From the IMG/VR virus record IMGVR_UViG_3300037067_027616, positions 64,001 to 128,000 of that record: DNA of 64,000 nt; one strand, written 5' to 3'. The translations under genes and the position numbers were made by a program. Below are positions 11,142-14,835 of this stretch, piece after piece. The stretch is from a virus. Taxonomy: Duplodnaviria; Caudoviricetes. Position 1 is the stretch's first letter; the number at the start of each line of letters is the position of its first letter. Under the pieces are notes generated by a model. The model worked only from the letters and a program-made list of their open reading frames with translations, ran no database searches and was not told where the DNA came from.

Positions 11142-11392
11142 TTACGACAAGGTGTTCCAAGCCAGAAACCAACATCCCTACATTTGGGATGATAACAATT
11201 ACGGCATTCGCGAACGGTTGAAACCTTTCGTTGTTTTACGGGTGGCTTCCGCCAAACTGTGCGGCGGCGCTCAACTGATTTCAGAGCGGCGGTCTTTTGC
11301 CACTCTACACCAGCGAGAAAACCCGCCACATACCCGGGGTCGAAGTGCATGTTATCAACATATTTTTCGGCATACTGCTGTGTTCGTGTCAT
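11087..11392 (-). CDS. cassette ORF, hypothetical
   Basis: GAGGAG RBS; starts after GTTGTTT (11435) and contains the matching AAACAAC (11230-11236). Confidence 0.6.
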   Translation of the reverse strand: MTRTQQYAEKYVDNMHFDPGYVAGFLAGVEWQKTAALKSVERRRTVWRKPPVKQRKVSTVRECRNCYHPKCRDVGFWLGTPCRKWKPRSGVIGRGKKVGSS

Positions 11393-11428
11393 TTCATCGC
11401 TCCTCTAAAATGGTCGTCGCCACATTGC

Positions 11429-11561
11429 AAACAACGTTTGCGACACAAGTGAACGTGCCTATGGCCTGTGTTGACACGACTCGCACCATATAATACCACG
11501 ACTGTCACGATAACCAATTACCTTCATACACCCAGGGCATGTCACTTTGTCGTTGTTGTGC
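11429..11561 (-). repeat. attC-like site
   Basis: aaacaac gttt gcgaca c aagtga.. / ..tcactt tgtcgt t gttgtgc. Confidence 0.8.
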
Positions 11562-11674
11562 GATGCGGAAGGAGTGCCTACTTTATGTTCGTGTTGGCGA
11601 CCCATGAACCAGCCGCATAGCCAGAAAAAACCTGCACCCATCAGCACTGATACAGCAGTAAGTAAAAGTCCCAT
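11459..11674 (-). CDS. cassette ORF: TM helix plus zinc ribbon
   Basis: GGAGG RBS; CPGC...CESC encoded by the hairpin loop. Confidence 0.65.
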   Translation of the reverse strand: MGLLLTAVSVLMGAGFFWLCGWFMGRQHEHKVGTPSASHNNDKVTCPGCMKVIGYRDSRGIIWCESCQHRP

Positions 11675-11715
11675 GTCGCCAACCTCCCGATTAAGAAAAG
11701 CATGACTGAAATTTC

Positions 11716-11856
11716 ACACAACGTCCTCAGGCACCCGCCCGAAGTTGCCGCCCACAGAATGGACAAAAATTATATCCATTTTCGAGATAATAGCCGAGTG
11801 AAGCACGCTCTTCACAGCACGCACATGGCGGCAATTTTGGGCTGCCTGTGTTGTCG
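11716..11856 (-). repeat. attC-like site
   Basis: acacaac gtcct caggca ccc gcccgaagttgccgcc / ggcggcaattttgggc tgcctg t gttgtcg. Confidence 0.85.
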
Positions 11857-12293
11857 GCTGTGGCCTGCGCCTGGGCCGGTTCCACGATTGCCGCGAGACG
11901 CAACAGATACCTATGCAACTCAACGGGCGTGCGATTCGGCAGAGACTTCTTGAGTGCGTCCAACTCCCGCGAAAAGTATCCGACATCGACACCCCATTGG
12001 CGAAGTTGCACTATTCGTGCGTTGACCTTCGCTATGACACGATCTTTTTTATGCAACCCAACACCGCATAGTAACTCGTAAATGTCTTCGAATAGTGCGA
12101 TTTCGTCCATGGCGCTGTTGTGTGCCGTGCCTAACTCCTTAGCTTTGAGCGCTGCCCACTCTGCCCTCTGTTGCCATGTACCTATTTTGTCGGGGCATAA
12201 GGCGTAAGATATTTCTTCAATTTTTTCGATAAGCCACTTACAGTTTATGCCAAGCTGATCGGCACGTTTTGTTTCCATTTCAAGTTTTGTCAT
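11727..12293 (-). CDS. fused two-cassette ORF ending in a zinc ribbon
   Basis: AGGAG RBS before MTKLEM; reads in frame through the site at 11981-12123; C-terminal CACC...CPFC. Confidence 0.7.
   Translation of the reverse strand: MTKLEMETKRADQLGINCKWLIEKIEEISYALCPDKIGTWQQRAEWAALKAKELGTAHNSAMDEIALFEDIYELLCGVGLHKKDRVIAKVNARIVQLRQWGVDVGYFSRELDALKKSLPNRTPVELHRYLLRLAAIVEPAQAQATADNTGSPKLPPCACCEERASLGYYLENGYNFCPFCGRQLRAGA
11981..12123 (-). repeat. attC-like site with mutated core (GTT to GAT)
   Basis: cgacatc..ccattggcgaagttgcactattc / gaatagtgcgatttcgtccatgg..gttgtgt. Confidence 0.75.
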
Positions 12294-12323
12294 AGCCGCG
12301 CTCCTATCATTAAAGGCATGGCA

Positions 12324-12458
12324 CCACAACATTTTCTAAATGGTTGATAGTTGCCGCATAGCCTCGATAAACAATGAAACTGGACCAGGGATATTATATC
12401 GTGGAAAAGTATCAACTTCTGCAAGACGAGCGGCAATTTCAGCCTTTAGCTGTTGTAG
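12324..12458 (-). repeat. attC-like site
   Basis: ccacaac attt tctaaa t ggttgatagttgccgc / gcggcaatttcagcc tttagc t gttgtag. Confidence 0.85.
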
Positions 12459-12596
12459 GCTGTTTGAGGAGGCTTCCATAGCTTCCTCAAATTTGATATA
12501 TTCTCCGCACTCACCTTTGTCACACATCTGGATAAAATCTGAATATCCAACAGGGCTACGAACCAATTTGTACCTTGTTAAATTTTCTACTGACAT
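12336..12596 (-). CDS. cassette ORF, hypothetical
   Basis: GAGGAGG RBS before MSVENL. Confidence 0.65.
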   Translation of the reverse strand: MSVENLTRYKLVRSPVGYSDFIQMCDKGECGEYIKFEEAMEASSNSLQQLKAEIAARLAEVDTFPRYNIPGPVSLFIEAMRQLSTI

Positions 12597-12615
12597 AAAA
12601 GCCTCCTCAAATGGA

Positions 12616-12766
12616 CGACAACGTGCGCCGTTATGTGCAATCCGCAACTTTGGGCGGATTGAGGCGCTGGTACAACCAATCAACAAACTTGGATGATTCG
12701 CTATCAGCAACTTCCTTAACATATTCTCGCACCACTTCAAGCGCCGTCACATAGCGGCTGTTGTCG
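12616..12766 (-). repeat. attC-like site
   Basis: cgacaac gtgc gccgttatgtg / cacatagcggc t gttgtcg. Confidence 0.8.
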
Positions 12767-12879
12767 GATCGTTGAGCGAGTTCCTTTACTGTTTTCCATG
12801 CCTCGCTTACGACTGGAGATATTGGATACGATATATCTAAAAAATTCTCTACTATGGATACAGGATCTTGGCTTGGCAT
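12631..12879 (-). CDS. cassette ORF, hypothetical
   Basis: GGAGG RBS; stop in the distal hairpin arm. Confidence 0.65.
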   Translation of the reverse strand: MPSQDPVSIVENFLDISYPISPVVSEAWKTVKELAQRSDNSRYVTALEVVREYVKEVADSESSKFVDWLYQRLNPPKVADCT

Positions 12880-12913
12880 GGAAAACCTCCAATAAATTTA
12901 AGAGCATAATGTT

Positions 12914-12984
12914 CGACAACGTCTCGGCGCACCGCCCGATGCGGTACGCTACTCCTGGCCCGTTTCGGGCTGCGCCTGTTGTGC
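12914..12984 (-). repeat. attC-like site
   Basis: cgacaac gtctc ggcgca cc gcccgatgcgg / ccgtttcgggc tgcgcc t gttgtgc. Confidence 0.85.
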
Positions 12985-13511: not shown

Positions 13512-13558
13512 GTTTTCTCCTCGCCAGTTTAACTATAAATTCAAGTTGGCAAAATTTT

Positions 13559-13699
13559 GTCTAACGTCACGGCCTATGCCTGCTGTACCGGCCTACACAT
13601 GCGACACTTGATGCAGATTTCCCAACCGATCACGTGCTTATTTTCGATTGGAGTCCACTGGTGATCGCAGGCTGGTATGGCAGATTGGGTCTGTTGTAC
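13559..13699 (-). repeat. attC-like site
   Basis: gtctaac gtcac ggccta..ctgctgtaccggcct / aggctggtatggcag..tgggtc t gttgtac. Confidence 0.8.
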
Positions 13700-13951
13700 G
13701 CCTGTACAAGACAACCGAACAGACATGACGCAATAGCCTGCCGGAATGCCAAACTGGCCGCCATCCACCTTGTACACCACTTCGACCGCCACTTCGCGGC
13801 CAGAGTATTCGCAAATTGACGGTGACCACTCCCGCAAACGCAGAGTGTCCCCGACAGCGTAATGGCGGTCGTCCTTCCGATACTCAAACGTCTTGACTCC
13901 ATCCACCATGTGCTGAAACACCGACGGCCAAGTCTTCAATTCGTGCAACAT
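13574..13951 (-). CDS. cassette ORF: DUF3850/ASCH-like domain plus zinc ribbon
   Basis: HELKTWP..F....G.KTFEYRKDDR.YAVGD.L.LREW; C-terminal CDH...CIKC. Confidence 0.8.
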   Translation of the reverse strand: MLHELKTWPSVFQHMVDGVKTFEYRKDDRHYAVGDTLRLREWSPSICEYSGREVAVEVVYKVDGGQFGIPAGYCVMSVRLSCTGVQQTQSAIPACDHQWTPIENKHVIGWEICIKCRMCRPVQQA

Positions 13952-13973
13952 AACTGCTCCTCCCGTGTATGGC

Positions 13974-14044
13974 GTACAACGTTCACTGCATGGCGAAGTG
14001 GTGTTTTAACCATTTGCAAAGCGAACGCCATGCAGTTGTTGGGC
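13974..14044 (-). repeat. attC-like site
   Basis: gtacaac gttc actgcatggcg / cgccatgcagt t gttgggc. Confidence 0.88.
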
Positions 14045-14156
14045 GATGTAATTTTTTGCCATATTGATAGGCAATAACTTCAACCGCCTCGTTAAGTCCG
14101 ATTGGAATACCTTGTCGCACTAGGTCGCTCAACTTTTCCAATCTATCATCAACCAT
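13983..14156 (-). CDS. cassette ORF, 57 aa (not in the ORF track)
   Basis: GGAGGA RBS; MVDDRLEKLSDLVRQGIPIG...HHFAMQ*. Confidence 0.6.
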   Translation of the reverse strand: MVDDRLEKLSDLVRQGIPIGLNEAVEVIAYQYGKKLHRPTTAWRSLCKWLKHHFAMQ

Positions 14157-14178
14157 AATTCCTCCAAAAAATTATTTC

Positions 14179-14316
14179 GCCCAACGTATGCTAAACGGCT
14201 GACAGTTGCCGCAACTTAGCACAAAAAGAGTTGGTTACATCACTATCGCACTTCCACGAACCTTTAGTTTGATACTCATTAACGACTGCGGCAATTTCAG
14301 CCTTTAGCTGTTGTAG
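14179..14316 (-). repeat. attC-like site
   Basis: gcccaac gtat gctaaa c ggctgacagttgccgca / tgcggcaatttcagcc tttagc t gttgtag. Confidence 0.88.
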
Positions 14317-14439
14317 GCCCGTTGTTTGCGACTCCGCCTCTTCCAGAGTTTTTATGGACAAGTCCACAGCCTCCGAAAGCATAATACGACCATGAGGATA
14401 GTTGCTCTTGAGAACCGCAATCGCTTCTTTATTGTCCAT
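14191..14439 (-). CDS. cassette ORF, hypothetical
   Basis: AGGAGG RBS; N-terminus similar to the ORF at 14503-14745. Confidence 0.65.
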   Translation of the reverse strand: MDNKEAIAVLKSNYPHGRIMLSEAVDLSIKTLEEAESQTTGLQQLKAEIAAVVNEYQTKGSWKCDSDVTNSFCAKLRQLSAV

Positions 14440-14473
14440 AAAAACCTCCTATGAATGGTTCGCAAACTATGGC

Positions 14474-14616
14474 CTACAACGTGTGGCAAAGGGTTGATGC
14501 AATTAAACGCTATAGGCCCCGCACCTATGACCACAACGTTTACCTCCGGCATAAGGACAGCTTTCAGTTTTACGACAGATGCTGCGTTTAATTGTTTCAC
14601 CCTTTGTAGGTTGGTG
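14474..14616 (-). repeat. attC-like site
   Basis: ctacaac gtgt ggcaaagggttgatgcaattaaacgc / gcgtttaattgtttcaccctttgt..gttggtg. Confidence 0.82.
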
Positions 14617-14745
14617 GCCCGTGGCCGCTTGCGCCTGGGCCGCCTCGACATCTGCAATGGCAATATTTAACGCTTCGCGCAAACCACCATATCTCTCGTC
14701 AGGCCAATTTGCCTTGATTAACCGTACAGCTTCTGCCCGTTCCAT
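14503..14745 (-). CDS. first cassette ORF, hypothetical with Cys-rich tail
   Basis: GAGG RBS; EA..LIKANWP..RY..LREAL..AI. Confidence 0.65.
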   Translation of the reverse strand: MERAEAVRLIKANWPDERYGGLREALNIAIADVEAAQAQAATGHQPTKGETIKRSICRKTESCPYAGGKRCGHRCGAYSV

Positions 14746-14774
14746 TTAATCCTCTCCGGCCCGCAGGCCATGGA

Positions 14775-14835
14775 CACCAACTATACGTATGATGAAACGC
14801 CTTTGTGTAAGACTTTGACTTTTATAGCTTTGATA
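14775..14835 (-). other. putative attI-like insertion site
   Basis: GTTGGTG at 14781-14775 complements the first cassette's CACCAAC but has no upstream hairpin; preceded by AT-rich AAAGTC direct repeats. Confidence 0.5.

Follow-up and report, generated by a model that had tools for sequence, protein, structure and literature searches.

A stretch of 64,000 nucleotides from a virus genome in IMG/VR (bases 64,001-128,000 of a 466,729-bp record with an estimated completeness of 98%; hereafter the window) carries on its minus strand, at approximately 8865-14826, what is probably an integron-like gene-cassette array of a non-canonical kind in a 467-kb phage. The array comprises at least 12 cassettes, the coordinates of which are collected in Table 1. 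Each cassette begins with a start core GTTGxyz, continues with a ribosome-binding site (RBS) and a small open reading frame (ORF), reaches an end core x'y'z'CAAC and closes with an imperfect hairpin ending in NNAC^GTTG, where the caret marks a junction. The motif (A)CGTTGxyz lies approximately 30-40 nt 5' of the start codon of each small gene (from 14,781 to ~11,230), and x'y'z'CAAC(A) follows further 3' in each unit, usually within the ORF.

The initial annotation of this DNA had proposed that the two ends of each cassette are complementary, as expected of insertion as circles, and had quoted nine pairs of start and end cores. All nine pairs were recovered on the minus strand where they had been placed, and their match lengths (7, 10, 9, 10, 7, 8, 7, 8/9 and 7 nt, the 8-nt match in cassette f extending to 14 of 17 positions) were correct. 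To these we added three units, h (12622/12452), i (12330/12117) and i' (11987/11850, with an R' box that reads GAT). Complementarity was scored as identity at the variable core positions 5-10, summed over 11 units. Own pairing gave a sum of 48, compared with 27.2 ± 4.0 when start and end cores were shuffled; no sum this high came up in 200,000 shuffles, and the nine pairs of the initial annotation alone gave a permutation p of 1e-5. Ends that face each other across a single hairpin had been described as matching less well, and this was the case: they agreed at 2.5 of 6 positions, which is the chance level, versus 4.4 of 6 for own pairs. The same test on 57 cassettes from eight other phage contigs returned an own-pair sum of 203 versus 130.3 ± 8.7 shuffled, a value not reached in 20,000 shuffles. 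In cassette b, the exact 10 nt are followed by 8 nt more, and in cassette h the own-end pairing is 13 nt longer, joining ~12599-12611 in the Shine-Dalgarno region with 12463-12475. This longer pairing is kept in a homologous cassette of another phage, and it may be an extension of the folded site, a means of translation control, or both.

We then closed the cassettes into circles in silico, replacing the linear junction with the cassette's own start core at 11 window junctions and calculating hairpin stability with DNA energy parameters. The own core stabilised the hairpin on the gene strand by 3.3 kcal/mol (Wilcoxon p = 0.002) and on the complement by 4.5 kcal/mol (p = 0.005), and it was the best of 12 start cores in 8 of the 11 units, among them cassette i. 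Over 72 cassettes the circular form was 2.3-3.4 kcal/mol more stable than the linear form (p ~1e-8), and the linear junctions behaved like random pairings. The offset pattern had been called unexpected for terminators, and the hairpins are indeed not terminators: they are without a T tract, and terminator-like and promoter-like matches were at or below the shuffle expectation and did not fall together with the hairpins as a class.

The stretch from CAAC to the next GTTG forms a long imperfect hairpin that spans 49-137 nt in the window and 49-157 nt over all sites, compared with about 57-141 nt for the palindromes of attC. CAAC ... GTT(G/A) stands at the borders of every site, and AAC and GTT were invariant in an alignment of 50 sites from 11 other phage loci. 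From these sites, with no window sequence among them, we built a covariance model, R1. Searching the 64-kb window with R1 yielded 11 matches, all on the minus strand and all within 10056-14616, with E-values from 4.5e-15 to 0.013 that are rough owing to a short calibration. In the 50-site alignment 93.2% of cells were paired, compared with 69% after shuffling and ~30% with slid partners, and double (compensatory) changes occupied 173 cells, compared with 52 after shuffling and 16-45 with slid partners. Geometry was read from 83 sites in the window and in other phages. The commonest layout, seen on the gene strand, is CAAC/GTTG, an asymmetric loop (5' side 1 nt, 3' side 4-5 nt), a helix of 6 bp, a 1-nt bulge, a second helix of 6 bp and a variable centre. 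The single-base bulge sits on the 3' arm next to GTTG and was G 31 times and A 11 times on the gene strand. Extra bases were more numerous on the L'-R' arm in 62 sites and on the other arm in 8.

Most of the sites also encode protein: 60 of 72 cassettes have an ORF that passes the end core and terminates within the hairpin, often 2-8 nt short of the next GTT. CAAC is translated in all three frames and is therefore conserved at the level of DNA. Several hairpin loops, including that of cassette i', encode CxxC...CxxC tails. The product of cassette d consists of a DUF3850 domain followed by a hairpin-encoded tail, and the Pfam match stops at residue 77, just short of the end core.

Stem mismatches on the gene strand were A.C 40 times and G.T 4 times. 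Because an A.C mismatch on the gene strand becomes a G.T wobble on its complement, we infer that the folded substrate would be single-stranded DNA complementary to the genes, as in integrons, and not mRNA. G.T pairs numbered 178 with the complement folded and 37 with the gene strand folded, and the complement was the better-folding strand in 69 of the 83 sites. This asymmetry bears on the proposal that the structures act in RNA, with the 5' untranslated region pairing with its own coding region to control translation or processing, or that the gene bodies are invertible segments as in shufflons and invertons. The conserved pairing over the Shine-Dalgarno region of cassette h and the 7-10-nt inverted repeats flanking each gene body speak for such a proposal. 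We nevertheless consider it highly improbable. The mismatches are wobble-compatible on the antisense and not on the mRNA strand, no Rfam family matched, and whole arrays have been swapped between related phages (see below). In addition, 72 of 72 cassettes carry an ORF on the gene strand, the only strand searched, that runs from the body to or past the end core, with no sign of an inverted body.

The site family is shared with other phages. The 23-mer CAACAGCTAAAGGCTGAAATTGC, which forms the 5' arm of two window hairpins (that of cassette b among them), has exact copies in 17 other IMG/VR contigs of 10-219 kb; a set of 185,579 species genomes of bacteria and archaea contains none. With a looser 19-mer, only four matches came up in bacterial and archaeal genomes, at chance level and in unrelated contexts. 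The family was seen in phage contigs only. Arrays in these phages hold 21 sites within 8 kb of a complete 213-kb genome and 9-11 sites in others, always with one polarity and co-oriented with the genes. Several features of the sites would suit an ordinary CALIN (cluster of attC sites lacking integron-integrases), consisting of canonical attC sites acquired from and recombined by a host IntI: the AAC...GTT boxes, imperfect palindromes 49-157 nt in length, uniform polarity and an own-end offset of the canonical type. This phage, with its sites clustered and neither an integrase nor another recombinase of its own, resembles one. CALINs of 2-3 attC sites do occur in cultured phages, and some of these are substrates of IntI1 (Qi et al. 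2023, PMC9892861). However, attC is defined as having its extrahelical bases, G and T on the 3' arm of the bottom strand, on the R''-L'' side that is distal to the crossover (Bouvier et al., PMC2727003), and the bulge and longer spacer of the present sites are on the L'-R' arm. The commonest arm is one of phages and not of bacterial or archaeal genomes, and related arrays are headed by a non-IntI recombinase of their own. We regard an ordinary CALIN as unlikely.

Own-end pairing is symmetric and allows either of two crossovers equally well: H1, at G^TTG on the upstream side of the gene, or H2, at CAA^C. The polarity of the cassettes was instead read from the ends of arrays and from homologous cassettes. 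Arrays open with a start core that lacks an upstream hairpin and is preceded by TA^GTTG instead of AC^GTTG, and the first unit still has a matching end core; they close with a hairpin plus GTTG ahead of a core gene, for example polA. When 73 cassette bodies were clustered at the DNA and protein level, we obtained two full-length homologous pairs, L011/L018 and window cassette h/G009 (locus L035), too few to test co-inheritance with the upstream or downstream hairpin. In both pairs the homology extends from ACGTTGT to the next GTTG, such that the body and the downstream hairpin arms are common and the upstream hairpins are unrelated. Between L011 and L018, the start and end triplets changed jointly (TAG/CTA versus TAC/GCA). 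The base before GTT is always C, the counterpart of the G after AAC on the attC bottom strand (PMC2727003). Because of the array heads and ends, the two homologous pairs, the A.C/G.T asymmetry and the C before GTT, H1 is favoured. The cassette boundary is thereby placed at the GTT upstream of each gene, and the array swap described below places it there too. The reversed polarity, with crossover at CAA^C and a cassette made of the upstream hairpin and the gene, had suggested itself from the attC-bottom-strand look of the gene strand; heads and ends, homologous pairs and the G.T/A.C asymmetry led us to reject it. We also noted that within the homologous sites (L011:6164-6295 versus L018, and window 12331-12451 versus L035) the arms are identical or nearly so and the gene bodies are ~75% identical, whereas the hairpin centre cannot be aligned. 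The centre therefore behaves as a separate, fast-changing module.

Array turnover was visible in a comparison of a 47.6-kb contig, G006, with the phage of locus L127. Their flanks, from DUF2800 through the recombinase gene on one side and at polA on the other, are 76-82% identical in nucleotides, and their recombinases are 83% identical. The arrays in between, 3.2 kb and 2.6 kb long, have no detectable similarity, and the left break falls at the first GTT. A third relative carries yet another gene series. A conserved platform bearing a variable array is the integron picture. In L127 one 133-aa gene (L127:10607-11008) was called on the opposite strand of the otherwise co-oriented array and may represent either a cassette that was inverted or an antisense gene.

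The recombinase on this platform belongs to a clade of Xer-like tyrosine recombinases found at array heads in eight other phage contigs (Table 1). In the eight contexts for which DNA was available, from several distinct phages, the first GTTGxyz core lies 0-38 nt after the recombinase stop codon. The head has a conserved form, ...TTATATGAAC-N4-GTTCATATAATAACTA^GTTG: the recombinase gene overlaps at its 3' end a small conserved hairpin, TTATATGAAC-N4-GTTCATATAA, after which comes TAACTA^GTTG. At six loci there were 30 model matches downstream of the recombinase and co-oriented with it, and none upstream or on the other strand. By comparison, 78 control loci at other phage tyrosine recombinases gave a background of 0.16 sites per 10 kb per strand, and none had three or more sites; these controls were the remaining loci returned by an IMG/VR search in which close relatives of the recombinase were confined to two contigs. 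In metagenomes we found ~33 homologues, 43-100% identical. The recombinase ORF of G006 encodes 268 aa and ends 7 nt before the first start core. It reached 130 bits with XerA and, with the integron-integrase model (cut-off 265), 125 bits; its closest solved relative is XerA (PDB 4A8E). Aligned with VchIntIA (PDB 2A3V), it has 37 residues in place of 87 in the region containing I2, the integrase-specific domain (PMC4792948). A 373-aa integrase that lies near a site in contig G010 belongs to a different, ordinary phage integrase family and was not counted as part of the system.

The placement of this enzyme also helps to weigh a further explanation, namely that the hairpin arms serve as portable homology for general (homologous or annealing) recombination between co-infecting phages, much as has been proposed for the PeSL modules of T4-like phages, with complementarity as a structural by-product. 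In its favour, the arms are the same from phage to phage, in contrast to the hairpin centres and gene bodies, which diverge. The arrays also sit in replication and recombination modules beside RecT, Rad52, PD-(D/E)XK and Enc34-type genes, and most array-bearing phages are without a site-specific recombinase. Such exchange does not explain why the variable end triplets of L011 and L018 covary, why a specific head is joined at GTT or why one recombinase clade is constantly placed at that head, and no PeSL-like promoter or terminator signal was present. We consider the homology explanation distinctly improbable.

Our preferred explanation remains an integron-like array, and it can be put as a sequence of steps. 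The mobile unit would run from TTGxyz through a 5' untranslated region with an RBS and a small ORF to x'y'z'CAAC, and would close with an imperfect hairpin (49-137 nt) that ends in NNAC-G. In the free circle, the two complementary cassette ends would close the base (R box) of a single folded recombination site. On insertion, a single crossover in the conserved C-G-T-T-G would carry the TTGxyz half to the opposite cassette end, and each hairpin in an array would therefore be flanked by the cores of two different cassettes. The folded substrate would be the strand complementary to the genes, and the enzyme would be an Xer-like tyrosine recombinase of the clade described above. The initial annotation had likewise ascribed the offset pattern to a G^TT crossover of a mobile circular cassette, a view supported by the homologous cassettes, the array heads and ends, the array swap and the recombinase at the heads.

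Several points weigh against this explanation. The 467-kb record encodes no IntI, other tyrosine recombinase, Y1 (HUH) transposase or credible serine recombinase (no match to TIGR02249, PF00589 or PF01797), so that activity in this phage is hypothetical; among array-bearing records, 9 of 11 are without a tyrosine recombinase. As the enzyme is absent, the two arrays of this genome would be orphans comparable to a CALIN, and they may either be serviced in trans by the recombinase of another element or no longer be active. The link between recombinase and array is one of synteny, and mobility of the cassettes in this genome is read from sequence. The crossover can be placed only within C-G-T-T-G, and two full-length homologous cassette pairs plus one array swap make a thin basis for the boundary. 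Finally, own-end matches are strongest near the head and weaker distally, the hairpin arms are gone below ~11,200, and degeneration is seen in the distal units. One end core has AAA, and an internal R' box has mutated from GTT to GAT (in the hairpin of cassette i, at 11987, whereby the ORF continues into unit i'). These features are compatible with a fossil array.

Table 1. Features of the window array, of the second array in the same genome and of recombinase genes at related array heads. Positions are those of the window unless a contig or the genome is named; start cores are given with their first position and end cores with the position to which they extend; E, rough E-value of covariance model R1.
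Feature	Position	Strand	Start core	ORF	End core	Hairpin	E	Remarks
Array head, attI-like entry site	14782..14826	-						45 nt ending ...CATACGTATA, directly 5' of the first G^TTGGTG; no hairpin upstream
Cassette a	14480..14780	-	GTTGGTG 14781	14503-14745	..CCACCAAC to 14610	14481-14609	0.013	Model match 14474-14616
Cassette b	14185..14479	-	GTTGTAGGCC 14480	14191-14439	GGCCTACAAC to 14310	14186-14309	4.5e-15	
Cassette c	13980..14184	-	GTTGGGCGA 14185	13983-14156	TCGCCCAAC to 14038	13981-14037	5.5e-6	
Cassette d	13565..13979	-	GTTGTACGCC 13980	13574-13951	GGCGTACAAC to 13693	13566-13692	1.9e-4	
Cassette e	13237..13564	-	GTTAGAC 13565	13281-13511	TCGTCTAAC to 13287	13238-13286	1.1e-10	Small membrane protein
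Cassette f	12920..13236	-	GTTGTGCG 13237	12949-13197	AACGCACAAC to 12978	12921-12977	1e-7	
Cassette g	12622..12919	-	GTTGTCG 12920	12631-12879	TCCGACAAC to 12760	12623-12759	No match at E <= 1	
Cassette h	12330..12621	-	GTTGTCGTCC 12622	12336-12596	AGCCTACAAC to 12452	12331-12451	3.4e-11	
Cassette i	11987..12329	-	GTTGTGGTGCC 12330	11727-12293	GGCACACAAC to 12117	11988-12116		
Cassette i'	11722..11986	-	GATGTCGGAT 11987		GCCGACAAC to 11850	11723-11849	6e-7	Start core degenerate
Cassette j	11435..11721	-	GTTGTGTGA 11722	11459-11674	TCGCACAAC to 11555	11436-11554	7e-10	
Cassette k	11087..11434	-	GTTGTTT 11435	11087-11392	TAAAACAAC to 11230			Hairpin 3' arm degenerate
Distal, decaying part of array	8865..10731	-					1e-7 and 5.6e-5	Sites 10382-10462 and 10056-10120 (core AAC to AAA)
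Last unit		-	GTTGTAGGCC 9172		..GTACAAC ~8930			Sequence reading
Second, smaller array	Genome ~141,800-144,155	-						Beyond the window; first two cassettes obey the chain rule (7-nt matches), next match weaker
Xer-like recombinase genes, 266-289 aa	L011:4143-4949, L038:8001-8843, L042:8001-8864, L043:8001-8831							Co-oriented with the array, directly upstream
Xer-like recombinase genes, 266-289 aa	L044:3492-4307, L045:4274-5116, L046:5491-6315, L127:9001-9801							Co-oriented with the array, directly upstream

The 45-nt head of the window array (...ACACAAAGGCGTTTCAYCATACGTATA^GTTGGTG) also opens the second array of the same genome at ~144,110, with 5 differing bases, 4 of them at the 5' end. 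Within this conserved head, a weak sigma-70-like match (TACACA-18-TATAGT, 9 of 12 positions) occupies 14780-14809 on the minus strand and overlaps the G^TT junction with its -10 box. The cassettes could be transcribed from it, but such matches occur at chance level in this region.

Nearly all genes of the window lie on the minus strand. Among the products of its large ORFs are a PARP-like protein, an FtsK-like ATPase, an M42 peptidase and a MoxR/VWA pair. The PARP-like protein, with WGR and PARP_reg regions, is encoded at 4962-6353 (-), downstream of the array. A similar PARP gene (L043:1-441) lies ~7.5 kb upstream of the recombinase in the array-bearing contig L043, one of whose cassettes is an RtcB-like ligase gene. 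Cultured phages yielded no nucleotide match, either to the window or to a hairpin; the window contains no tRNA; and Rfam, searched at the gathering threshold and also at E <= 1, returned nothing in the window or its sites. The flanking genes, one LemA-like and one of 394 aa, have relatives that are 32-49% identical, come without arrays and were uninformative; exact-protein look-ups for cassettes d and b gave nothing or fragments of the same phage only.

In a limited literature search we found no paper on arrays of this site family or on their Xer-like recombinase, and several known systems invite comparison. PeSL modules combine an early promoter with a terminator stem-loop and shuffle by homology in T4-type phages (PMC2839356, PMC4122927). 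The present sites resemble them in being repeated structured motifs set around small accessory ORFs of large phages, in hyperplastic regions where genes are gained, lost and replaced. In contrast to PeSL modules, they carry no promoter or terminator signal; what they do carry is a pair of invariant boxes, AAC and GTT, together with offset complementarity, and a tyrosine recombinase is associated with them. With IS200/IS605 and REP/RAYT elements, which use Y1 HUH enzymes, the arrays share strand-specific imperfect hairpins with bulges and, as proposed here, circular single-stranded intermediates. They differ from IS200/IS605 in that the genome holds no Y1 transposase, each unit has a single hairpin in place of a subterminal pair, its two ends complement each other and the boxes read AAC/GTT. 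XerCD integrates the folded single-stranded DNA of CTX-phi at dif by a single strand exchange that is resolved by replication, and this case shows that an Xer enzyme without I2 can use folded substrates. The phage arrays would by analogy pair an Xer-type tyrosine recombinase with a single-strand hairpin substrate. For CTX-phi, however, a whole phage genome enters one chromosomal site by means of host enzymes, whereas here many small cassettes are stacked beside a phage-encoded enzyme.

Integrons are regarded as a bacterial device, and their integrase is set apart by the I2 insertion that handles the extrahelical bases of attC. The phage arrays are integron-like in their working, and yet they depart from integrons in two defining respects, the position of the extrahelical bases and the possession of an IntI with I2. 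We see an even balance of probability for the fuller proposal that they are a phage-borne counterpart of integrons, run by an I2-less Xer-like recombinase on sites with mirror-image bulges that double as coding sequence, whether as an independent invention of cassette capture or as a relative of the integron ancestor, and used by phages of ~45-467 kb to trade small accessory genes. If the enzyme is active, it and its site would be a new compact recombination pair and a dedicated phage route for exchanging small accessory genes, probably for host takeover or counter-defence. The recruitment of Xer-type enzymes to folded single-stranded substrates would then be directly testable, which bears on the origin of integrons. 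As a practical gain, the own-end rule and the covariance model can delimit mobile genes in uncharacterised regions of large phage genomes.

Set side by side with integron and CALIN arrays, the phage arrays have one small, mostly promoterless ORF per unit, imperfect palindromes with ...AAC/GTT... and a variable loop length, a single polarity co-oriented with the genes, and an own start core that complements the own inverse core. They likewise have a distinct entry site at the head and a variable array between conserved flanks, and the strand complementary to the genes folds better. Unlike attC, the phage sites carry their bulges and long spacer on the crossover-side arm (L'-R'), with an unpaired spacer of 1 nt versus 4-5 nt. 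In contrast to integrons, most phage sites are translated as a C-terminal tail of the cassette protein, and the site family has been seen in phage contigs only. The recombinase differs from IntI in its length of 266-289 aa, its proximity to XerA, its lack of I2 and its position upstream of and co-oriented with the cassettes, not divergent from them. Whereas published phage CALINs have 2-3 sites, the arrays described here reach ~20 cassettes. What the phages would share with integrons is the same cassette logic (complementary ends with an offset, an array of variable content and a site at its head), joined to a different site geometry and a short, I2-less Xer-like enzyme.

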